From: Microcystis aeruginosa NIES-2549
Lineage (GTDB): Bacteria > Cyanobacteriota > Cyanobacteriia > Cyanobacteriales > Microcystaceae
DNA length: 32,000 bases
Assembly (NCBI RefSeq): GCF_000981785.2
Contig: NZ_CP011304.1
Span: forward strand, 1,560,001 to 1,592,000
Direction of reading: 5' to 3'
In this document: in pieces, positions 6,226 through 23,860 of the stretch
How positions within the stretch are numbered: the first letter of the stretch is position 1
Layout of the letters: each line of letters begins with the position of its first letter
The notes under the pieces: generated by a model
Seen by the model: the letters and a program-made list of their open reading frames with translations, nothing else
What the model was told of the DNA's origin: nothing
Database searches by the model: none
Program-made: the position numbers and the translations under genes

Positions 6226-7047
6226 ATGAGTGATCAAATCCTTTCTTCCCTCTCCCTGGAACAAAAACGACAAAACCTGCGCCACCAAAGACGATCAAAA
6301 GTGTGGCAAGCCCTAGGTCGCTTTCTGGTGGTTAGTGGTTTAGCGGCGGGATTAGCTTGGGGGATGACTTCGCCCTATTGGACAATTACCAAGGCTCGAC
6401 AGGTGGAAATCGAAGGCACGGAATTAATGTCGCCCGAGTCGATTCGTGCTTGGCTGAAATTAAGCTATCCTCTGTCTCTCTGGGAATTACCTACCCATCG
6501 ATTGCGAGAAAAATTAGCAGCTATTCCCGCCATTGCCGACGTTAAGATCGAGCGGCAATTATTACCCCCGAAAGTGATTGTTTCTATTCAAGAAAGAAAA
6601 CCTGTTGCCCGTTGGCGTTCTCATCAACAGCAAGGTTTTTTAGATGCCTCGGGAACGATAATTCCTCAAAACTATTATGGTCGAACTCTACCCAAAAGCC
6701 AATTACCTAGCCTAGAAGTGCTTGGTTACGACCGACAATATCAACAACAGTGGCAGAAAATTTATCCTTTAATTGACAACTTATCGATTAAAGTTACCGC
6801 CATCGATTGGCGCAATCCTAGTAATCTTGTACTAAAAACCGAACTGGGACAGGTCTATTTAGGTTTTTATAAGGATAGATTGCCCGAAAAATTAACCGCT
6901 CTCGTACAATCACGGCCATTGTCATCCAAGATACCCCTAGCGCGAATTCTCTACATTGACCTGAGCAATCCCGATGCTCCCACTGTACAATTAAAACCGC
7001 AGCCAGCCCCTATCGTGGCCAAAGTAACGGCAACTGCTAGGGATTAA
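6226..7047 (+). CDS. ftsQ: cell division protein FtsQ (POTRA domain)
   Basis: It has a basic N-terminus, one TM helix (FLVVSGLAAGLAWG) and a POTRA-like VEIEGTELMSPESIRAWL...VSIQERKPVA. It lies immediately upstream of ftsZ. I chose the ATG at 6226; the ORF is open from 6136. Confidence 0.8.
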   Translation: MSDQILSSLSLEQKRQNLRHQRRSKVWQALGRFLVVSGLAAGLAWGMTSPYWTITKARQVEIEGTELMSPESIRAWLKLSYPLSLWELPTHRLREKLAAIPAIADVKIERQLLPPKVIVSIQERKPVARWRSHQQQGFLDASGTIIPQNYYGRTLPKSQLPSLEVLGYDRQYQQQWQKIYPLIDNLSIKVTAIDWRNPSNLVLKTELGQVYLGFYKDRLPEKLTALVQSRPLSSKIPLARILYIDLSNPDAPTVQLKPQPAPIVAKVTATARD

Positions 7048-7239
7048 CTGCAATATATCAGCAAAAAACTGCAATTATTCCCTTTAGGTATTGCCAAAAA
7101 AACCAAATTATGATTTTCTGAACAAGAAACTGATAATGTAGATACTGGAACCGACATAATGTTAGTGATAGTGTTAACAGTGCATCTCTGATTTATCAAA
7201 CCAATAACAGAATCTTGTACTAAGAGTGTTCCAATTCCA

Positions 7240-8487
7240 ATGACATCGATTAATGAAATTGTTTCCATCTACCCAAATCTGAACAGTAACGATTATGCCA
7301 GTTCAGCTATGAGCGAAGATAATCATTCCTCTCGTAATAACACTGGTCTATCGTTTTCTCGCCCCCATGAATCACAGATGACACCCCGAGAAGAAAGTCG
7401 TAGTAATCGCATCGTGCCAAGCAATGTCGCCAAGATCAAGGTGATCGGGGTCGGCGGTGGGGGCTGTAACGCCGTTAACCGCATGATCGCCAGTGGCGTG
7501 ACTGGAATCGAATTTTGGGCAATTAACACCGACGCCCAGGCCCTGGCCCATTCCTCCGCCCCCCAAAGGTTACAAATCGGGACAAAATTAACCCGCGGTT
7601 TAGGGGCGGGCGGCAATCCAGCGATCGGACAGAAAGCGGCGGAAGAATCTCGGGATGAAATCGCCCAAGCATTAGAAGGAACCGATCTAGTCTTTATTAC
7701 CGCCGGCATGGGCGGCGGCACGGGAACGGGGGCTGCTCCAATTGTGGCCGAAATTGCCAAAGAAATCGGCTGTTTGACCGTGGGAGTTGTGACTCGTCCC
7801 TTTACCTTCGAGGGTCGTCGTCGCACTAATCAGGCCGATGAAGGGGTGGGCGGTTTACAAAGTCGGGTCGATACCCTGATTATTATCCCCAATAACCAGT
7901 TATTACAGGTAATACCCGCCGAAACTCCCCTACAGGAGGCTTTTCGCGTCGCTGATGATGTGCTGCGGCAAGGGGTGCAGGGGATTTCCGATATTATCAC
8001 GATCCCCGGTCTGGTGAATGTGGATTTCGCTGATGTGCGGGCAGTGATGGCCGATGCGGGTTCGGCCCTAATGGGCATCGGCATCGGTTCCGGAAAATCT
8101 CGGGCTAAGGAAGGAGCGATCGCTGCTATTTCCTCGCCGTTACTGGAATCCTCGATCGAAGGGGCGAAAGGTGTGGTCTTTAACATCACCGGTGGCCAAG
8201 ATCTAACCCTACACGAAGTCAATGCCGCTGCGGAAATTATCTATGAAGTGGTGGATCCCAATGCTAATATCATCTTTGGGGCGGTAATTGACGAGAAAAT
8301 GCAGGGAGAAGTCAGAATTACGGTCATTGCTACCGGTTTTTCTGGCGAATCCCCCTCTCGTCCCACCAGTAGCAAGGTGATGATCAATACCCCCGCACCC
8401 AGTCCTGTCCCGACTCCGGAACCACCAAAACCGGCGGGATTAGATATTCCCGAGTTCTTGCAACGTCGTCGTCCTTTTGATCGCTAA
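7240..8487 (+). CDS. ftsZ: cell division GTPase FtsZ
   Basis: It carries [15 protein letters not shown] and the tubulin signature [12 protein letters not shown]. The C-terminal conserved peptide is DIPEFLQRR. Confidence 0.95.
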
Positions 8488-13559: not shown

Positions 13560-14330
13560 ATAACCGATTACACCACTTTTTAGCGGAATCTCCTTGGTCA
13601 GCTGTGAACGTGATTGACATCCTCGCCGCCCTAAAAGTGCGGCGATTCCTAAACCTCACGATTTAAGTTTCTGCTTCCACCACCGTCGCATACCACAGTT
13701 AAAAAACCATGTACTGTCTTACACAGAGTCCACAGACTTTCGCCCCATTTCAGAAGCCCGATTCCGTGTGTCCCACGGTACGTTGACCGCCTATAGCTTC
13801 TTGTACTTGTTGCGCGCGACTTTTTACCCGGCCAAGCTTTTCTGGTCGGAACCCCCTAAGCCGAGTTTTCAAGGTGCTGCGCCGTCCACTTGGTTTTCGA
13901 GACTGGCCTTTTAATTCTAACGTAAAGCCAACCTAGAACGGCGGGGTTTCAGACCCAAAATTTCCGATGAACCAATGCCGCCAGACGGAAATACCCCGAG
14001 GATTTTCGCTGATTGTCGATGACCGAGGACATCGAAAAAGCCGCAATCTGAGCACTGGAGTTGGGAGGCAGTACTTGGGAGAAATTGGCAAAACAGACAG
14101 TAGAGTTGGCTGTATAGTGATCGCTAACCTGATGATCACCGATGGTGTCATTAGTCTCTATAGTCAGCGATTCCCTCTGTAGCGATGTTTTTGATGGTTT
14201 TCTGCTGCGAAACAAGCTATAATGGTCGAAAAGTCAAATTTGAAAAATTTTGCTTCCAACCCTATCGGCGTAAGGATTTCAGGAGTTGGCACCCAGTAGT
14301 ACATTAGCTTTGAATTGCTTTAACTGAGTC
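13560..14330 (-). mobile_element. Decayed IS200/IS605-family (IS1341-type) tnpB relic with an omega-RNA/right-end-like 3' region
   Basis: Minus-strand frames show broken TnpB-like pieces: AENHQ, VIIRLAITIQPT (resembling V.V.P.YTSQTC), RLFRCP....ENPRGISV (resembling R.F.C..CG..DRD.NAA.N) and TVGHTES. The 3' end has GGAATCGCCGCACTTTTAGGGCGGCGAGGATGTCAAT, a hairpin followed by GATGTCAA, as in many tnpB 3' ends. A long subterminal imperfect palindrome lies at 13536-13590. There are many stops and frameshifts. Boundaries are approximate. Confidence 0.45.
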
Positions 14331-16215: not shown

Positions 16216-16461
16216 ATGAGTCGAGAAAAAATTGAACAGTGGCTAACAGATAGGCTGACAAGTCTTCTAGGTGTAGATAGGGAAGACATTGATTTAGAAA
16301 AATCTATTTTCACCTATGGACTAGATTCTTCCGTTGCCTTGAGTCTTACTGGCGAGTTGGAAGTCATGCTTGGTTTAGAGCTAGACCCAATTTTATTTTG
16401 GGAATATCCCAAAATTAGTGAATTATCTGAATATTTAGTAGCTGAACTAGCTCAAAAATAG
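16216..16461 (+). CDS. acyl carrier protein (stand-alone)
   Basis: The protein is 81 aa and has the phosphopantetheine attachment motif YGLDSSVAL. Confidence 0.85.
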   Translation: MSREKIEQWLTDRLTSLLGVDREDIDLEKSIFTYGLDSSVALSLTGELEVMLGLELDPILFWEYPKISELSEYLVAELAQK

Positions 16462-16537
16462 GGGTGACTTTAATCATGAATGGGAACAAAGTTTTATTTA
16501 TCCTTTTGATGCAGAATTTCAGGCTAATCCCTATCCT

Positions 16538-17695
16538 GTGTTTGCGCAGCTTCGTCAAGAAGATCCTATCCACAAAAGTATTTTTGGAACATGGATTATT
16601 ACTCGTTATGCCGATGCCCTTACTATTTTAAATGATAAGCGATTCCAAGTAGATAATTTTCCTGAACGCCTTCAGCTAAAAAGTGCCTATCTCAAAGAAG
16701 ATAATCTAGACATTCTTGCACAAACTACTGATAAATGGTTGTTTTTTTTGGAACCACCCGATCATACTCGAATTAAAAATGCACTAATTCCATCCTTTTC
16801 TAGAGCCTCGCTCAATGCTATGCGTCCTAAAATTCAGGCAATTGTTGACGATTTACTGGATAGATTTGCCCCAAGGGGAGAGATGGAAATCATAGCAGAT
16901 TTTGCGACCCCTCTTCCTGCTTTTGCGATTACTAAAATATTAGGTTTACCGATTGAAGATTATCAACAATTAATGCGATGGTCTGCTAAGACCGTTTTCA
17001 TTTTTGATCAACCAGTATCTTTGGAAGAATATAAAGAGCAAAATCAAATTCTCATTGAACATAGAGCCTATTTTGCTCAAAAAGTAGCTGAATATAAAAG
17101 ACAACCAAACGACGGTTTGATCAGCCAGTTAGCTAATTATAAAGATAATATAAATGCCCTAACAGAAGATGAAATAATTAGCACTTCTATTCTGTTAATG
17201 GCGACATCCCAGGAATCAATGAAAGGACTACTGAGTAATGGTCTTTTAGCCCTTTTAAAACACCCACAAAGTTTAGAATATGTAAGACAAAATCCTGGTA
17301 ATATTGAAAATATTGTCGAAGAATTGCTACGTTATGATAGTCCTATTCAGTATGTCTCTCGTCGAGCAATAGAAGACGTTGAGGTTTCAGGAAAAATTAT
17401 TCATCGTGGGGAGTATGTCGTTATCTATCTCGGTGCAGTAAACCATGACCCTGAATACTTTTCTAATCCCCAACAACTGGATTTCAGTCGTCGCAAACCT
17501 AATTTGGGTTTTGGCGGTGGCCTTCACTATTGCATAGGAATGTTTTTAGCCAGGCTTCAAGTGCAAATCGCCCTAAATGCCATGGTGCAACGTTTGCCAG
17601 ATATTTGCCTCAATACAGATAAATTAGACTGGTGCGACAGCAAGATTTCAAGAAGATTAAAAACTCTTCCTGTCAAATTTACTCCTCTTGCTTAA
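16538..17695 (+). CDS. cytochrome P450; the true N-terminus is probably further upstream (see finding)
   Basis: The heme-thiolate loop is FGGGLHYCIGMFLA, with ExxR EELLRY and I-helix-like LLMATSQES. The same frame stays open back to 16451 and encodes YPFDAEFQANPYP, typical of P450 N-termini. It contains no ATG, GTG or TTG before the GTG at 16538. Confidence 0.85.
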   Translation: MFAQLRQEDPIHKSIFGTWIITRYADALTILNDKRFQVDNFPERLQLKSAYLKEDNLDILAQTTDKWLFFLEPPDHTRIKNALIPSFSRASLNAMRPKIQAIVDDLLDRFAPRGEMEIIADFATPLPAFAITKILGLPIEDYQQLMRWSAKTVFIFDQPVSLEEYKEQNQILIEHRAYFAQKVAEYKRQPNDGLISQLANYKDNINALTEDEIISTSILLMATSQESMKGLLSNGLLALLKHPQSLEYVRQNPGNIENIVEELLRYDSPIQYVSRRAIEDVEVSGKIIHRGEYVVIYLGAVNHDPEYFSNPQQLDFSRRKPNLGFGGGLHYCIGMFLARLQVQIALNAMVQRLPDICLNTDKLDWCDSKISRRLKTLPVKFTPLA

Positions 17696-18047: not shown

Positions 18048-19256
18048 TTAGGAAATTACTTCAACCGTCCACTCATTGCCAATACCTGTACTCCAAGTGG
18101 TAACACCTTGCTCAGAATCAGGACGATGTAAATAATCGCCTTTCCATGACTTCAATTTGATCTTGTCACCAGCGATCTTCTCCACCGTCCACTCATTGCC
18201 AATACCTGTACTCCAAGTGGTAACACCTTGCTCAGAATCAGGACGATGTAAATAATCTCCCTTCCAAGACTTGAGTTTCAATTTCTTTCCTGTGGATAGA
18301 ATATCCTGCTTGTAAGTTCCGCTAATACTATCAATTCGCAGACCAGTGGGCCCACCGATACTATGCAGTTTAAACTCCAGGGTGTTAGTTCCGACGACAA
18401 ATCCCGTCGAAATTGAAAAACGACTAATCTTTGTCCACCAAGAGCTTAAAGCAACAGGTTTACCCACCGATACCCCGTTAAGCACAATATCAGTAATGTT
18501 GTCATCCACGGAAAGTTCACCGACAATGGAAGCTTCAGAAAAATTGGGTAAAGTAAAGGTGGTTGTATAGCTATAGTTGCCAACCGGACCGTTAGCCGAA
18601 GGTTTTTTAGGGCCAATCCATCGGGCGGTATTGGTATTCGTAACCCAGTTAATTGGTGCTAAATCCTTGTTGGGAGTGGTAACACCTGGAGTTACTGTCC
18701 CCGCCGGATAGGTTGTTAACTTATAGTGGGGGTCGGGAATGCTATCCCCTAAAACCTGACGGGCATCGTCAACCCCCGTATTGTAGAGGTTAGCGATCAC
18801 TCCTGGCGCAGTGGGGACAATTTCCGTTGCTTTAGCAGTAGCAGAATAAGCAATCGTCAACTTGCCAGTGTTATCTGCGTACCATTTAGGATCATCGTTA
18901 TTGACGAAAGAAACTGTGTCTCCCGGTTGTAATTCAAAGCTTTGTTGTTTGCCGCTCACCGTAGATTTTGTGTTGCCCTTGGCATCTTTAATTTCGCCAA
19001 CTAAGGCCCCTGGATTCAAATTGGGATACTTAAGCCCAAATTTTTCATCGTTTTTGTCTCGGACATGACCATTGCCATCCACTGGGGTTTTGTATTTGGC
19101 TAGGCTAGGATCAGATGTTTCAAAGTTAATTAAAGTCCATTGACCTGTTGCCGTCAGGGAGATTGTCACCGTGCTACCGGAATTATTAGCCAGAGCTGGG
19201 GGATTATTAAGCTGGGTAGCCAGTTCTAATTGAGCCAGTCTGAGATGTTGAGACAA
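18048..19256 (-). CDS. multidomain lectin-like protein (PA-IL/LecA-like N-domain, carbohydrate-binding-like middle domain, two 40-aa Trp/Gly-rich C-terminal repeats)
   Basis: In the N-domain, GALVGEI...VSFVNNDDPKWYADNTGKLTI resembles the LecA pattern ...LIYNDVPGTYGNNSGSFSV. The middle region (NLYNTGVDD..DPHYKL...WIGP...GNYSYTTTFTLP...VDDNITDIVLNGV...GTNTLEFKLHS.GGPTGL) resembles domains seen in PEP-CTERM-type secreted proteins. The C-terminus carries KSWKGDYLHRPDSEQGVTTWSTGIGNEWTVE twice. The start is a TTG and no signal peptide is evident. Confidence 0.7.
   Translation of the reverse strand: MSQHLRLAQLELATQLNNPPALANNSGSTVTISLTATGQWTLINFETSDPSLAKYKTPVDGNGHVRDKNDEKFGLKYPNLNPGALVGEIKDAKGNTKSTVSGKQQSFELQPGDTVSFVNNDDPKWYADNTGKLTIAYSATAKATEIVPTAPGVIANLYNTGVDDARQVLGDSIPDPHYKLTTYPAGTVTPGVTTPNKDLAPINWVTNTNTARWIGPKKPSANGPVGNYSYTTTFTLPNFSEASIVGELSVDDNITDIVLNGVSVGKPVALSSWWTKISRFSISTGFVVGTNTLEFKLHSIGGPTGLRIDSISGTYKQDILSTGKKLKLKSWKGDYLHRPDSEQGVTTWSTGIGNEWTVEKIAGDKIKLKSWKGDYLHRPDSEQGVTTWSTGIGNEWTVEVIS
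18055..18294 (-). repeat. Tandem 120-nt duplication inside the lectin-like gene
   Basis: Positions 18064-18137 and 18184-18257 are identical over 74 nt. The flanks are similar but diverged. Confidence 0.9.
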
Positions 19257-19401: not shown

Positions 19402-22400
19402 ATGATTAAACAGCCCATAGCAATTGTTGGTATGGGATGTCGTTTTCCCGGAGCCAATAATCCTAGTGAATTTTGGGAGATACTCCAAAATGGCGTACAT
19501 ACGATAACTAAAGACCCTATAGATCGCCCTACGCAGATGACAGGTTGGGCGGGATTTCTCGAGGGCATAGATAAATTTGATGCGGCGTTTTTTGGCATTT
19601 CTTCGGAAGAAGCGATCAAGATGGATCCTCAACACAGACTTTTGTTAGAAACCTCTTGGGAAGCCTTAGAAGACGCTGGGCTAGTTCCCGCTAATTTAGC
19701 AGGGACCGATACTGGCGTTTTTATTGGGCTTTCTGGTAGTGAATATCTGAATTTATTAATTGAAGATTCAACCTTTAATACCGCCATTGGAACTCTCGAC
19801 TGTATGTTAGCCAATAGGATTTCTTCCTATTTTGATTTTCACGGTTTAAGTCTAACAATAAATACCGCTTGTTCTTCTGTATTAGTGGCAATAGATCGTG
19901 CCTGTCAAAGCTTATGGAATGAAGACATTTGTTTGGCTTTAGTAGGTGGTACACATCTAACTTTTTCTCCCGTGATTGCCTCTAGATATGTCAATGCGGG
20001 TTTGATTTCTGCCGATGGTTTGTGTAAAACTTTTGATGCTAAAGCGGATGGTTATGTTCGGGGCGAGTGCATCGGAGTCGTTGTCTTAAAACTTCTATCC
20101 CAAGCTCAAGCGGATGGCGATCGCATTTATGCTGTGATTCGGGGGAGTGGCGTTAATCACAATGGTAGTGGTAATGGCTTGACCGCACCCAATATGCAAG
20201 CCCAGATTGCTCTCTTGCAAAAAGTTTATCAACGGGCAGAAATTAATCCCAATTCCATTAATTATATTGAAGCTAACGGTACGGCAACGCCCATTGGAGA
20301 TGCCTTAGAAATGAAGGCATTAGGAACAGTAGTTGGCAAAGATCGAACTGCTGATAATCCCTGTCGGGTGGGCAGTGTAAAAACCAATATTGGTCATACA
20401 GAAGGTGCTTCTGGTATTGCGGGGTTGATTAAAGTTGCTCTTTCCCTCTATCACCGTCAAATACCCCCCACTTTACATTGTCAAGAGCCTAATCCTGCCA
20501 TTCCTTTTGCCAAACTAGGACTAAAAGTACAACAAACTTTGGAAACTTTACCCGAAGAAACAGGGCCAATTCGAGCAGGGGTTAGTTCTTTTAGTCTGGG
20601 GGGAACGAATGCTCATCTGATATTGGAATCAGTCCCGTCTCAAGCAAAAGCTGAACCTAATCTTTCTCCTTTACAAGTTTTTACTCTAACCGCCAAGACT
20701 TCTACTGCTTTACAAGCTTTGGTGCAACGTTATCAATCTTTCCTAGAAGATAACCCTGAAGTCGCTTTGTCCGATATTTGTTTTATGGCTAATACTAGGC
20801 GATCTCAATTCTCCCACCGTCTAGCTATGATCACTGAATCAAAAGAACAATTGCAAGAGCAACTAAATATGATTGTTCGCCAAGAAGCATTATCAAGTGT
20901 ATTCAGTGGACAAGTTATAAGGCAAAAATCCGCACCAATTTGTTTTATTTTTTCTGGAAAAAGCCAGAAACTTAAACTAATTATTAAATCCCTTGCTCAA
21001 AGTCATCCAGCCATCTATTCATTGCTAGAAGAATTGCAACCACTTATTTCTTCTTATTCGACAAGATCATTTTTTCAATTAATAGAAGAAGAAAATTTAG
21101 AAAACCCTTTTCTTAGCCAAGTAGTCAACTTTATCTGTGAATATGCGATGACTCAATTATGGCAATACTGGGGAATAAAACCAGCAATCTGTATAGGTTA
21201 TGGTCTGGGAAATTATGCTGCTTTAGTATTGGCGGGAATTTTAACTGTAGAAGAGGCAATTTCTTTAATCATAGAAGATAAAAACTCTGAATCACCTCCC
21301 AAGTTTCAAGCCGCAAAAATTCCCGTAATTTTACCGATCAGTGGTAAGACAATTAAAATTCATGAAACTATTGACTATAAGCAGTGGCAAAAAGAATTTA
21401 ATGTCAATAACATGAACGCAGAAAATTTACCTAGCCTATTATCAGACTCTAATGTAATTTTGCTAGATCTATGTTCTCTGGAGATCAAAAGTCATGATTA
21501 TCTCAAACAGCTTGATGATTATAACATAAAAAGTTCTGAACAAATAAAAAGTTTTGATTATTTATATTATTTATTTTCCACTTTAATCAAATTCTGGTTA
21601 ATGGGGGTGAAAATTGATTGGTCTAAAGTTTCAAACTATCAACAATGTTATCCTATTTCAGTCCCTACCTATCCCTTTGAGGGTCAATCATACTGGATTG
21701 ATGTATCACCTAAAATACCGAATCAACAAAGCATCCATAATCAAGAGAACTATTTGAAGGGACAACAAAGCAATAATCAAGAGAACTATTTGAATGTAGA
21801 ATTTATCGCTCCTCGTGATAATTTAGAAATGCAATTGACCGAGATTTGGCGAGAAGTTTTAGGAATCCAGACTATCGGAGTCAAAGACAATTTCTTCAAT
21901 TTAGGGGGACAATCTCTGGTGGCGGTCAAGCTATTTGCTCAAATCGAAAAAGTCTTCAAGGTCAATCTACCATTAGTCACCCTTTTCCAAGCTCCAACGG
22001 TTGAGCAAATAGCTAGGATTCTCCGGGAGAAAGCGGTTGAAACTGACCCCCAGACTCACAGCCTTAGACTTGAAAGCCAACTAAATCCTCAGTCTTCTCT
22101 AGTAGCTATGCAGTCGAGTGGCGCGAAAAGACCATTTTTTCTCGTCCCCGGTGGCGGCGGCGGCGAAAATGAATTAATCATCTATGCCAAATTAGTCTAT
22201 CTTTTTGGTCAAGAACGGCCTGTTTATGGATTCCAAGCAAGGGGTTGGGACGGAATCGAAAATCCTCACAATACTGTAGAGGCTATGGCAACCGACTACA
22301 TCAAAGAAATCCGTACCGTCCAACCCGAAGGACCTTATCTTCTCGGAGGTGAATGTATAGGCGGACTTGTCGCGTTGGAAATGGCACAACAGCTAGTCGC

Positions 22401-22875
22401 ACAAGGACAGAAAGTGGGATTATTAGTTTTTCTCGATACACCTGTTCTAACTCTGCCGAGAAAACTCCGCTATCAGGTGGAGAAATTTTTCCAAATTCCA
22501 AGAATTCGCTATCATCTCAGAGAACTCCAATTCTCAGCCAAAGGAGAGAGTCTCACCTATATTTTTAACCAAGCATCAAAGGTGAAGGAAAAGCTGGCAG
22601 AAGACAGCTTCAGTCGCCACCGAAAAAAAGTTGCCAAAAACTACATAAAAATGATTATGCACTACAGACCACAAACCTATTCTGGTGGAATTACCTGGTT
22701 AGTCACTGAAAGTTTTTATCCCAAGGCTCAAAATCAGGGGTGGAACCATCTAGCCAGAGGAGGACTAGAAATTCACCGGATTCCAGGAACTCACGACTCT
22801 TATCTCGGTGACAATGTCGAGACTACGGCTGAAAGGCTTAAAGCTTGCCTTGACGAAGCGCAGGCAGATGATTGA
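19402..22875 (+). CDS. type I PKS-like synthase: KS (Cys-Asn-His) - degenerate AT-sized region - PCP-type carrier - thioesterase (Cys nucleophile)
   Basis: KS motifs are GMGCRFPGA, TACSS (Cys codon 19870-19872), EANGTAT (Asn 20275-20277 where His is expected) and NIGHTEGASG. The AT-like region has FIFSGKSQK and GYGLGNYAA in place of GQGSQ and GHSxGE. A post-AT linker VPTYPFEGQSYWI is present. The carrier motif is FFNLGGQSL (Ser 21913-21915). The TE has FFLVPGGGGG, YGFQARG, LGGECIGG (Cys 22354-22356) and GTHDSY. Confidence 0.9.
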   Translation: MIKQPIAIVGMGCRFPGANNPSEFWEILQNGVHTITKDPIDRPTQMTGWAGFLEGIDKFDAAFFGISSEEAIKMDPQHRLLLETSWEALEDAGLVPANLAGTDTGVFIGLSGSEYLNLLIEDSTFNTAIGTLDCMLANRISSYFDFHGLSLTINTACSSVLVAIDRACQSLWNEDICLALVGGTHLTFSPVIASRYVNAGLISADGLCKTFDAKADGYVRGECIGVVVLKLLSQAQADGDRIYAVIRGSGVNHNGSGNGLTAPNMQAQIALLQKVYQRAEINPNSINYIEANGTATPIGDALEMKALGTVVGKDRTADNPCRVGSVKTNIGHTEGASGIAGLIKVALSLYHRQIPPTLHCQEPNPAIPFAKLGLKVQQTLETLPEETGPIRAGVSSFSLGGTNAHLILESVPSQAKAEPNLSPLQVFTLTAKTSTALQALVQRYQSFLEDNPEVALSDICFMANTRRSQFSHRLAMITESKEQLQEQLNMIVRQEALSSVFSGQVIRQKSAPICFIFSGKSQKLKLIIKSLAQSHPAIYSLLEELQPLISSYSTRSFFQLIEEENLENPFLSQVVNFICEYAMTQLWQYWGIKPAICIGYGLGNYAALVLAGILTVEEAISLIIEDKNSESPPKFQAAKIPVILPISGKTIKIHETIDYKQWQKEFNVNNMNAENLPSLLSDSNVILLDLCSLEIKSHDYLKQLDDYNIKSSEQIKSFDYLYYLFSTLIKFWLMGVKIDWSKVSNYQQCYPISVPTYPFEGQSYWIDVSPKIPNQQSIHNQENYLKGQQSNNQENYLNVEFIAPRDNLEMQLTEIWREVLGIQTIGVKDNFFNLGGQSLVAVKLFAQIEKVFKVNLPLVTLFQAPTVEQIARILREKAVETDPQTHSLRLESQLNPQSSLVAMQSSGAKRPFFLVPGGGGGENELIIYAKLVYLFGQERPVYGFQARGWDGIENPHNTVEAMATDYIKEIRTVQPEGPYLLGGECIGGLVALEMAQQLVAQGQKVGLLVFLDTPVLTLPRKLRYQVEKFFQIPRIRYHLRELQFSAKGESLTYIFNQASKVKEKLAEDSFSRHRKKVAKNYIKMIMHYRPQTYSGGITWLVTESFYPKAQNQGWNHLARGGLEIHRIPGTHDSYLGDNVETTAERLKACLDEAQADD

Positions 22876-22951: not shown

Positions 22952-23860
22952 ATGAAGGCTCCAGTGGCTTTTTTTATCTTTAACCGACCTCAACTGACAG
23001 CAAAGGTATTTGAAGGGATTCGTCAGGCCAAACCCAACAAACTGTTTATCATTGCCGACGGTCCGCGCTCCGCTCGACCAGACGACCGCGACAAGTGCGC
23101 TGCCACCCGTGCCGTTGTCAAACAAATCGATTGGGACTGTGAAGTATTCAGGAACTATTCAGAGGTTAATCTAGGCTGCGGACGCAGGGTATCTACAGGT
23201 ATTAGCTGGGTTTTTGAGCAAGTCGAGGAAGCCATCATCCTAGAGGACGACTGCCTCCCCCACCCAACTTTTTTTCCATTTTGCGAACAACTATTGGAGA
23301 AATATAGAAATGAGCCAAAAATAATGAGTATCAGCGGAACTAACTGGTTAGGACAATGGAAATCAGAGCAGCAGAGTTATCATTTTAACTTTTGTGGGGG
23401 CATTTGGGGATGGGCCACTTGGAAAAGAGCTTGGCAAGGCTATGACTATGAGATTAAATTATGGTCAAACCGAAAAATCAGGCAAGAAATTAAAGATTTT
23501 ATCGAGGATGAACAAATATTTAAATGGTACGACCAAGTTTTCTCCCAAGCCTATAGAGGAGAAATTAATACTTGGGACTATCAGTGGATGTTTCAATGCC
23601 TTTTCCACTCAGGATTAGAAGTGGTTCCCTCAGTCAACTTAATTTCTAATATTGGCTTCGGGGAAGAAGCATCCCATACTAAAAACCCCTATGATTTCAG
23701 AAGCAATCTTCCCCAGCACTCTATGTTATTTCCGCTGAAGGAAGCCAAGGAATTAGTAATAGACAGAGAATATGGCAAACAAGTAGTAAAAAAACTTTCT
23801 ATCAATAGCCATCTCCTTGTCAGATTGAAAAATAAAATCAAGAGGTGGTGGGCTGGGTAA
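22952..23860 (+). CDS. GT-A fold glycosyltransferase (GNT-I / HlpA-like family)
   Basis: It has an N-terminal Rossmann-like start (VAFFIFNRPQL), a DxD-type motif ILEDDCLPHPTFF and a length of about 300 aa. It lies 76 nt downstream of the synthase, on the same strand. Confidence 0.65.
   Translation: MKAPVAFFIFNRPQLTAKVFEGIRQAKPNKLFIIADGPRSARPDDRDKCAATRAVVKQIDWDCEVFRNYSEVNLGCGRRVSTGISWVFEQVEEAIILEDDCLPHPTFFPFCEQLLEKYRNEPKIMSISGTNWLGQWKSEQQSYHFNFCGGIWGWATWKRAWQGYDYEIKLWSNRKIRQEIKDFIEDEQIFKWYDQVFSQAYRGEINTWDYQWMFQCLFHSGLEVVPSVNLISNIGFGEEASHTKNPYDFRSNLPQHSMLFPLKEAKELVIDREYGKQVVKKLSINSHLLVRLKNKIKRWWAG

Follow-up and report, generated by a model that had tools for sequence, protein, structure and literature searches.

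The window analysed here is a stretch of 32,000 nucleotides from Microcystis aeruginosa NIES-2549 (contig NZ_CP011304.1, positions 1,560,001–1,592,000 of the forward strand), and all coordinates below refer to it unless another locus is named. It contains the genes of a FAAL (fatty acyl-AMP ligase), a stand-alone acyl carrier protein (ACP), a cytochrome P450 and a single-module synthase in which a ketosynthase (KS), a dead acyltransferase (AT), a peptidyl carrier protein (PCP) of the nonribosomal peptide synthetase (NRPS) type and a thioesterase (TE) are fused (Table 1). The synthase protein is identical to WP_052734168.1 of M. aeruginosa (4.29 Mb chromosome). Its KS has an asparagine, Asn292, at the place where the KS domains of type I polyketide synthases (PKSs) carry the histidine of the HGTGT motif. 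The nature of this KS, and its likely function in the module, were examined by comparison with related proteins and loci.

Table 1. Features of the synthase gene and its neighbours in the window
Feature	Position	Strand	Basis
FAAL, 582 aa	14420..16168	+	Pfam AMP-binding 3.3e-66, AMP-dom_DIP2-like
Stand-alone ACP, 81 aa, GLDSS	16216..16461	+	Pfam PP-binding 5.6e-15
Cytochrome P450, 5' end frameshifted	16476..17695	+	Pfam p450 1.9e-26
Protein of lectin-like appearance, 402 aa, C-terminal tandem repeat KLKSWKGDYLHRPDSEQGVTTWSTGIGNEWTVE x2	18048..19256	-	Lies between the P450 and PKS genes
Single-module synthase KS - dead AT - PCP - TE, 1157 aa	19402..22875	+	Pfam; identical to WP_052734168.1
KS domain, residues 4-415	19411..20646	+	Pfam; best PDB matches are type I PKS KS domains
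Cys157 codon (TGT) in NTACSS, predicted acyl-accepting nucleophile	19870..19872	+	Invariant in 22 aligned family members
Asn292 codon (AAC), position of the HGTGT histidine	20275..20277	+	Window reading; phmmer against PDB
KTNIGH with Lys327 and the second catalytic histidine, His332 (CAT, 20395-20397)	20380..20397	+	K327, N329 and H332 invariant in the family
KS-AT linker and truncated inactive AT remnant, about residues 425-760	20674..21681	+	Alignment with intact ATs
GYGLG (residues 599-603) replacing AT GHSxG	21196..21210	+	His to Tyr600, Ser to Gly601
NRPS-type PCP, about residues 805-878, Ser838 codon 21913-21915 in FFNLGGQS	21814..22035	+	PP-binding 6.7e-15
TE, about residues 911-1148	22132..22845	+	Pfam Thioesterase 1.3e-19
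302-aa protein following the PKS gene, cluster membership uncertain	22952..23860	+	No family assignment

The KS active site and the domains that follow it

The region 20269–20283 on the plus strand encodes E-A-N-G-T starting with residue 290, and the context of Asn292 in the open reading frame (ORF) is IEANGTAT, within the segment SINYIEANGTATPIGD. When the protein was compared with the PDB using phmmer, its stretch “yieaNgtatpigd” was aligned with “yieaHgtgtslgd” of CurL (4mz0) as well as with the two KS domains of 7zma, which places Asn292 at the position of the HGTGT histidine. The domain was found to be a member of the type I PKS KS group, with Pfam matches to ketoacyl-synt (1.5e-74) and Ketoacyl-synt_C (1.9e-41), and with the KS domains of modular type I PKSs (7zma, CurL 4mz0 and PikAI) as its best PDB matches. 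The significant matches in Pfam, NCBIfam and PDB were all with type I PKS proteins or proteins resembling ketoacyl-ACP synthases (KAS) I/II, and none of them was of the KAS III type. The KS fold and family with a retained cysteine (Cys157) and the HGTG(T) histidine gone are the features of non-elongating KS domains (KS0), and the Cys-His-His triad of elongating type I PKS and KAS I/II enzymes is broken at its first histidine. A sequence-only reading of this DNA had reported the asparagine codon, the active-site cysteine and the second histidine, and all three lie where it had placed them. It had also described the Cys-Asn-His arrangement as the inverse of the FabH triad. This is accurate as a description, since the order in the KS is Asn then His and not that of FabH or chalcone synthase, but the likeness is positional only and no sign of special chemistry was found. 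Furthermore, inspection of residues 380–415 (GVSSFSLGGTNAH; GVSSFSLGGTNAHLILES) revealed no second catalytic cysteine of the thiolase kind. The full-length AlphaFold model, made from a 22-sequence alignment, had a mean pLDDT of 55 with most of the KS below 50, and was too poor to be used.

Pfam recognised ketoacyl-synt, Ketoacyl-synt_C, KAsynt_C_assoc, CurL-like_PKS_C, a weak Acyl_transf_1, PP-binding and Thioesterase in the synthase. The Acyl_transf_1 match reached 28.5 bits against a cut-off of 32.7 and spans only positions 2–114 of the 319 positions of the profile. As compared with intact ATs, a deletion of about 90 residues has removed the small subdomain along with the HAFH histidine, the GQG oxyanion motif has become GKS, and the arginine after the GHSxG nucleophile helix, which normally binds the substrate carboxylate, is gone. 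Together with the loss of the GHSxG histidine and serine, these changes leave the module without the functional AT of an elongating type I PKS module. The KS-AT linker region matched the RhiE-like KS-MAT linker family of Pfam; in trans-AT systems, the KS-AT linker region is the docking place of the free AT.

The NCBIfam matches of the carrier domain were all NRPS models, and its best PDB matches were the NRPS PCPs of AB3403, LgrA, PvdL and TycC3. The carrier matched NRPS carriers and termination modules, including those of SrfA-C and EntF. The putative catalytic residues of the TE are Cys985 in GECIGG (codon 22354–22356), Asp1012 and His1131; the nucleophile is serine in most orthologues (GxSFGG) and always either serine or cysteine. 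The TE showed 96% identity to that of the Microcystis allele P0002 and 33% to that of allele P0004, whereas for the AT remnant next to it the identity to P0004 is 98%, and this mismatch indicates domain-level recombination between alleles.

The histidine position in related proteins

A database search returned about 60 proteins of the same architecture with 43–98% identity, from sources that include Microcystis, Cylindrospermopsis, Dolichospermum, Snowella, Umezakia, Aphanothece and Pseudanabaena. A recurring cassette of FAAL(-ACP), one or two P450 genes and the KS-AT0-PCP-TE gene (AT0, inactive AT) was observed in the loci fetched. The residue at the histidine site is His in 45, Gln in 8 and Asn in 6 of the 59 members in which it could be read, and the AT serine is absent in every family member, all 59 of these included. 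In the 22 family members that were aligned, Cys157, Thr294, Thr296, Lys327, Asn329, His332, the PCP Ser838, and the Asp and His of the TE are invariant.

Within Microcystis, IEANGTAT was present in all full-length members read from two of the three clusters formed at 90% identity. The third cluster holds both Gln (P0006, P0149 and P0153) and Asn (P0150) alleles that are more than 90% identical to one another, and therefore the polymorphism at the histidine site segregates within this genus. At the nucleotide level, GCT AAC GGT was found in five independent metagenome contigs, whose gene differs from that of the window at 43 nucleotides, and likewise in L001 (Cylindrospermopsis) and L005 (Microcystis); L002 also has AAC. 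The possibility that AAC arose from CAC or CAT through an error of sequencing or assembly, which the sequence-only reading had allowed for, was rejected because the codon is shared by many independent assemblies, including contigs that keep it in spite of the 43 other differences. Nothing was found in favour of such an error, and its probability is practically nil.

The background frequency of such sites was estimated in a tblastn sample of 162 KS matches from 88 loci. The triad was Cys-His-His in 142 of these matches, and a residue other than His at this site was confined, one partial match aside, to the present family and to a second cyanobacterial module, of the KS(Gln)-AT0 kind (GQGVG). 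The underlying scan of representative genomes used generic KS motifs and had only L009 and L010 as family members among the matches listed; its remaining loci were used solely to sample the background of KS triads. The second kind of module occurs in two Nostocaceae loci (L014, 11559–14450; L015, 5247–8405) and carries Gln at the His position (VEVQGTGT). Each of the two lies directly 3' of a normal elongating module; the one in L015 has an AT without the serine (GQGVGEYVA), and no AT motif was picked up in that of L014. In addition, both catalytic His are replaced by Asn (IEANGTGT and KTNIGNL) in P0108 from Nostoc sp. (1294 aa), which falls just outside the family and keeps an intact AT motif (GHSVGEY) together with a TE of the Cys type.

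The history of the site was followed in a bootstrapped neighbour-joining tree of the KS alone, from which the focal column had been removed and in which the alleles recombine. The query was grouped with P0001, P0003 and the Cylindrospermopsis protein P0007, all with Asn (bootstrap 96). The addition of the Gln alleles P0002 and P0006 gave a clade with a bootstrap of 99, nested among the His-type proteins, and several basal lineages carry Gln. The codon states are GCT AAC GGT for Asn, GCT CAG GGT for Gln and GCT CAC GGT for His, with identical flanks. Across the orthologues, His is encoded by CAC or CAT and Gln by CAG or CAA, the latter in the basal Gln lineages. Within these identical flanks, a single step separates CAC from AAC and likewise from CAG, whereas AAC and CAG differ by two, and this implies that the histidine was lost at least two separate times. 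The simplest history would be two separate losses in sister lineages, in addition to older Gln lineages with CAA. An independent origin of Asn in P0004 and P0005, as suggested by the KS-only tree, was rejected when sliding-window comparison showed that these proteins are mosaics. Their residues 1–200 resemble a His-type allele and residues 200–800 are near-identical to the query allele, and thus their Asn shares its origin with that of the query.

The KS was found to be under purifying selection, with a dN/dS of about 0.2. Measured against the query, the KS gave values of 0.27 for an Asn mosaic and of 0.22, 0.21 and 0.20 for one Gln, one Asn and one His orthologue. It is also the most conserved domain of the protein (79–88% identity), and the AT remnant is looser (dN/dS 0.35–0.41). 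The similarly low values in the Asn, Gln and His types indicate that the KS retains a function for which the histidine is not needed, and the finding of only Asn and Gln as replacements suggests that the site still needs a polar side chain capable of hydrogen bonding. These observations bear on the possibility of a catalytically silent KS, which would be a structural scaffold or belong to a cluster in decay, and in which Asn292 would be a neutral lesion. Decay could be read from the frameshifted P450 of the window, the FAAL divided between two ORFs in L005, the transposase between FAAL and ACP in L001, and the AT that is already degenerate, and a structural role has sometimes been ascribed to KS0 domains (PMC7327777). 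However, a silent KS is quite unlikely, as the 1157-aa ORF is intact in more than 100 assemblies, the KS is the best conserved domain at a dN/dS of about 0.2, its Cys157, Lys327 and His332 are invariant like the PCP Ser838 and the TE Asp and His, the TE nucleophile is never other than Ser or Cys, and the replacements at the site are restricted to two residues.

Neighbouring genes and the proposed route of the acyl chain

The best single-enzyme NCBIfam matches of the FAAL, neither of which reached the curated cut-off, were the fatty-acid--AMP ligase PRK05850 (2.9e-137) and FadD32 (4.3e-130). Six of eight related loci (L001–L003 and L005–L007) have a FAAL gene upstream of the PKS gene. The ACP has a counterpart in the form of an 81-aa PP-binding gene at the same place in L001, L002, L003 and L005, and it is fused to the FAAL in L006 and L007. 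In L005, which is otherwise 96–97% identical to the window, the FAAL is split into two ORFs of 271 and 299 aa (6726–8450), and there is no counterpart of the approximately 350 bp (13614–13965) that separate the ABC transporter gene from the FAAL gene in the window. The ACP of L001 is separated from the FAAL by a DDE transposase (7329–8228). The intact frame of the P450 starts from GTG at 16538 and encodes 385 aa, as against 406–412 aa in relatives; the gene is intact in the Cylindrospermopsis loci L001 and L002 and in Microcystis of the L005 type. A tblastn search with the P450 of L005 placed residues 1–9 in one frame and residues 10–405 in another, and comparison of 16476–16540 of the window (TTTATTTATCC) with L005 (TTTATTTAATCC) showed the deletion of one base, after which the frame shifts at about codon 9. 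The frameshift could be a real lesion, the sign of an alternative start or a homopolymer error.

The 402-aa protein encoded on the opposite strand had no Pfam match above the cut-off and no sequence match in the PDB, and only a weak similarity to the beta-trefoil DUF569 was noticed (E 0.0014). Its AlphaFold2 model (pLDDT 68.6) looks lectin-like, as the Foldseek matches, although of low TM-score, included beta-sandwiches of the CBM35, CBM51 and LecA type. Homologues of this protein adjoin the PKS gene in L001, L002, L003, L008 and L009 (tblastn), which come from distant genera; relatives exchange C-terminal DUF569, LamG, ricin, crystallin or LTD domains, and two to three minus-strand genes are present upstream of the PKS gene in the Microcystis contigs L089–L093. 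The 302-aa protein downstream had no match in Pfam, NCBIfam or the PDB sequences; by eye it resembles GT-A glycosyltransferases in a stretch ILEDDCLP, and copies of 94% identity were found 3' of the PKS gene in Microcystis only (L004 and L005) and not in other genera. The other genes of the window are housekeeping (FtsQ, FtsZ, ThiD, an amino acid ABC transporter and an AAA ATPase). Neither the window nor seven related loci contain an AT, adenylation or condensation gene. In the His-type locus L007 (4113–9943), the KS-AT0-PCP-TE gene is preceded by FAAL and ACP in fused form, by a pair of P450 genes and by a UDP-glycosyltransferase, and this set hints at a glycosylated hydroxy fatty acid as the product in that lineage.

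From the domains, residues, gene neighbourhood, conservation and selection observed, we infer the catalytic steps, the direction of transfer and the kind of product. The FAAL would adenylate a fatty acid and load it onto the free ACP, and the P450 would probably oxidise the chain while it is tethered there. The acyl chain would then move from the free ACP onto Cys157 of the KS, which would pass it, with no extender unit added, to the phosphopantetheine thiol on Ser838 of the PCP of the same protein. Finally, the TE (Cys985/Asp1012/His1131) may free the product by hydrolysis or by formation of a lactone or ester. Asn292, like the Gln or His of the orthologues, would act only as a polar residue that makes hydrogen bonds and would have no role in decarboxylation. 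The H298Q form of E. coli FabB is reportedly dead in decarboxylation, a report which our literature search did not confirm and which would count against elongation by the KS. On balance, the KS is likely to be a non-elongating KS0 in a one-module chain-release synthase, because the AT cannot load an extender unit, the carrier is of the NRPS type and no loading enzyme is encoded nearby. The loss of the HGTG histidine as a hallmark of KS0 domains, on which the sequence-only reading had relied, agrees with a review in which the KS0 domains of trans-AT PKSs are described as typically without this residue, and in which the H346A variant of DEBS KS1 yields about 1% of the wild-type product (PMC7327777). 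KS0 domains are also reported (PMC7923214) to move chains from ACP to ACP or from ACP to PCP. The expectation of a transacylase in place of standard decarboxylative extension is thus supported by the dead AT, the NRPS-type carrier and TE and the absence of a nearby AT, adenylation or condensation gene. The dead AT is common to all orthologues and the histidine is still present in most of them; elongation in this module had therefore probably stopped before the histidine was lost, and Asn292 would be a consequence and not the cause.

Several points weigh against such a non-elongating role. Most orthologues keep the histidine and the only replacements are Asn and Gln, so the site is still constrained, and decarboxylative activity could have been retained in the His-type enzymes. 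Lys327 and His332 are invariant, and both are linked to decarboxylation in the KSs that have been studied; a distant housekeeping malonyl-CoA:ACP transacylase could in principle load the carrier. A relay of KS0, PCP and TE that merely releases an acyl chain looks redundant, and another role may be hidden behind it. In addition, the frameshift at the 5' end of the P450 may mean an impaired pathway in this strain.

Some of the same observations would be expected if the KS still elongates. Malonyl would be loaded in trans, for example by FabD, Asn292 and His332 would stabilise the enolate in the manner of the His/Asn pair of FabH and chalcone synthase, and the TE would release a beta-keto acyl chain extended by C2. 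Such activity would fit the His in 45 of the 59 orthologues with only the amide residues Asn and Gln in the others, the invariance of Lys327, Asn329, His332, Thr294 and Thr296, and the KS-AT linker and AT remnant, which are kept under moderate constraint and of which the linker region matches the RhiE-like family. We nevertheless regard elongation as unlikely, since no AT gene was found in any locus examined, the carrier is of the NRPS and not of the ACP type, the histidine has been lost at least twice with no change in the constraint on the KS, and DEBS KS1 H346A retains just about 1% of activity (PMC7327777).

A Cys-Asn-His site might also make a different bond, either by a non-decarboxylative Claisen reaction of the thiolase or NocG kind between FAAL-loaded chains borne on the ACP and the PCP, or by C-O bond formation giving an ester or lactone. 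Thiolases have Cys, Asn and His at equivalent positions, with the Asn at the equivalent of Asn292. Here a single FAAL would serve two carriers, and in a cyanobacterial precedent one FAAL loads two acyl-ACPs that are condensed by the KS NocG (PMC10088813). However, the KS is by sequence a typical type I PKS KS, its C-terminal active-site loop (380–415) has neither a second cysteine nor another obvious base, and the free exchange of His, Asn and Gln among orthologues is unlike the behaviour of a newly specialised catalytic residue. The loading of a PCP-type carrier by the FAAL is only hypothetical as well, and we hold bond formation of this kind to be very unlikely.

A bolder proposal, to which we give little credence, is that the His/Asn/Gln polymorphism acts as a natural functional switch or, alternatively, that the Cys-Asn-His site has acquired a non-Claisen activity, for example the formation of an ester or lactone on the chain hydroxylated by the P450. 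If the switch were true, the His types (Dolichospermum, Snowella, Umezakia and others) would extend the chain with malonyl loaded in trans and the Asn and Gln types (Microcystis, Cylindrospermopsis and Aphanothece) would not, and one cassette would give products differing by C2 among bloom-forming cyanobacteria.

Returning to the KS as a probable KS0 in chain release, the Microcystis proteins annotated as “type I polyketide synthase” or “malonyl CoA-ACP transacylase” most likely neither extend a chain nor transfer malonyl. As the AT is dead in all members and yet about three quarters of them keep the histidine, calling by the missing histidine alone would overlook non-elongating modules, and in genome mining KS0 calls should not rest solely on its absence. 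The compact FAAL-ACP-P450-KS0-PCP-TE cassette, often found beside lectin-like genes, represents an orphan pathway common to major bloom-forming cyanobacteria, and a small oxidised fatty acid derivative from such organisms would hold ecological interest. The current understanding of ketosynthases is not overturned by the Asn292 KS.

Comparison with known systems

A cyanobacterial KS0-AT0 module that follows a FAAL and an ACP has already been described in ClyE, and our literature search found no published description of the FAAL-ACP-P450-KS0-PCP-TE cassette. Among more distant systems, the KS shares with FabH, chalcone synthase and the thiolases the thiolase-fold superfamily and a thioester site of Cys with one His and one Asn. 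Unlike FabH and the thiolases (Cys-Asn-His-Cys), it is a KAS I/II-like KS of a type I PKS. The mycolic acid condensase Pks13 with FadD32 resembles the present system in combining a FAAL with a KS-AT-carrier-TE protein; Pks13 was the second-best NCBIfam match (E 9.8e-168), and its structures were among the PDB matches. In Pks13, the KS has the Cys-His-His triad and a carboxyacyl extender is loaded by a working AT, whereas the synthase studied here has a dead AT and Asn in place of the first His. A Pks13-like condensase was rejected because of the dead AT and because the NF040607 score of 560 bits falls far short of the cut-off, 2100.

The KS0 domains of trans-AT PKSs likewise keep the cysteine, have lost the HGTG histidine and pass chains unextended (PMC7327777). 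They belong to long assembly lines with free ATs, unlike the single module studied here, which is derived from a cis-AT PKS and has an AT remnant and a release end of the NRPS type. According to Masschelein et al. (2019), as cited in PMC7923214 and PMC13324335, the KS0 in the terminal module of the enacyloxin PKS (Bamb_5919) transfers the chain to the free PCP Bamb_5917. In both, chain release would begin with the passage of the completed chain from an ACP to a carrier of the PCP type. The enacyloxin system is a large multimodular Burkholderia PKS in which, in those sources, the condensation domain Bamb_5915 puts the chain onto cyclohexane carboxylic acid, whereas a fused TE would take over here.

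ClyE and its homologue NocP are described in PMC7923214 as a KS0-AT0-(DH)-T module (DH, dehydratase; T, thiolation domain) of the chlorosphaerolactylate cluster of Sphaerospermopsis and Anabaena. The authors of that study pointed out that the KS lacks the histidine and the AT the serine. They put forward acyl shuttling as its role and devised the feeding of labelled fatty acids to test chain extension. As far as this account goes, the module in the window resembles ClyE in that it is cyanobacterial, follows a FAAL and a free ACP, and has a KS without the histidine and an AT without the serine. The two may further be alike in the action of tailoring enzymes on the tethered acyl chain and in the proposed unextended transfer from the ACP to the carrier of the module itself. 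In that account, ClyE hands the chain to the NRPS ClyF for ester formation by a condensation domain and release by a TE; the window contains no condensation or adenylation domain, and PCP and TE are fused to the KS0-AT0. The tailoring enzymes of the ClyE pathway, compared here by description and not by sequence, are halogenases, and the one in the present cassette is a P450.

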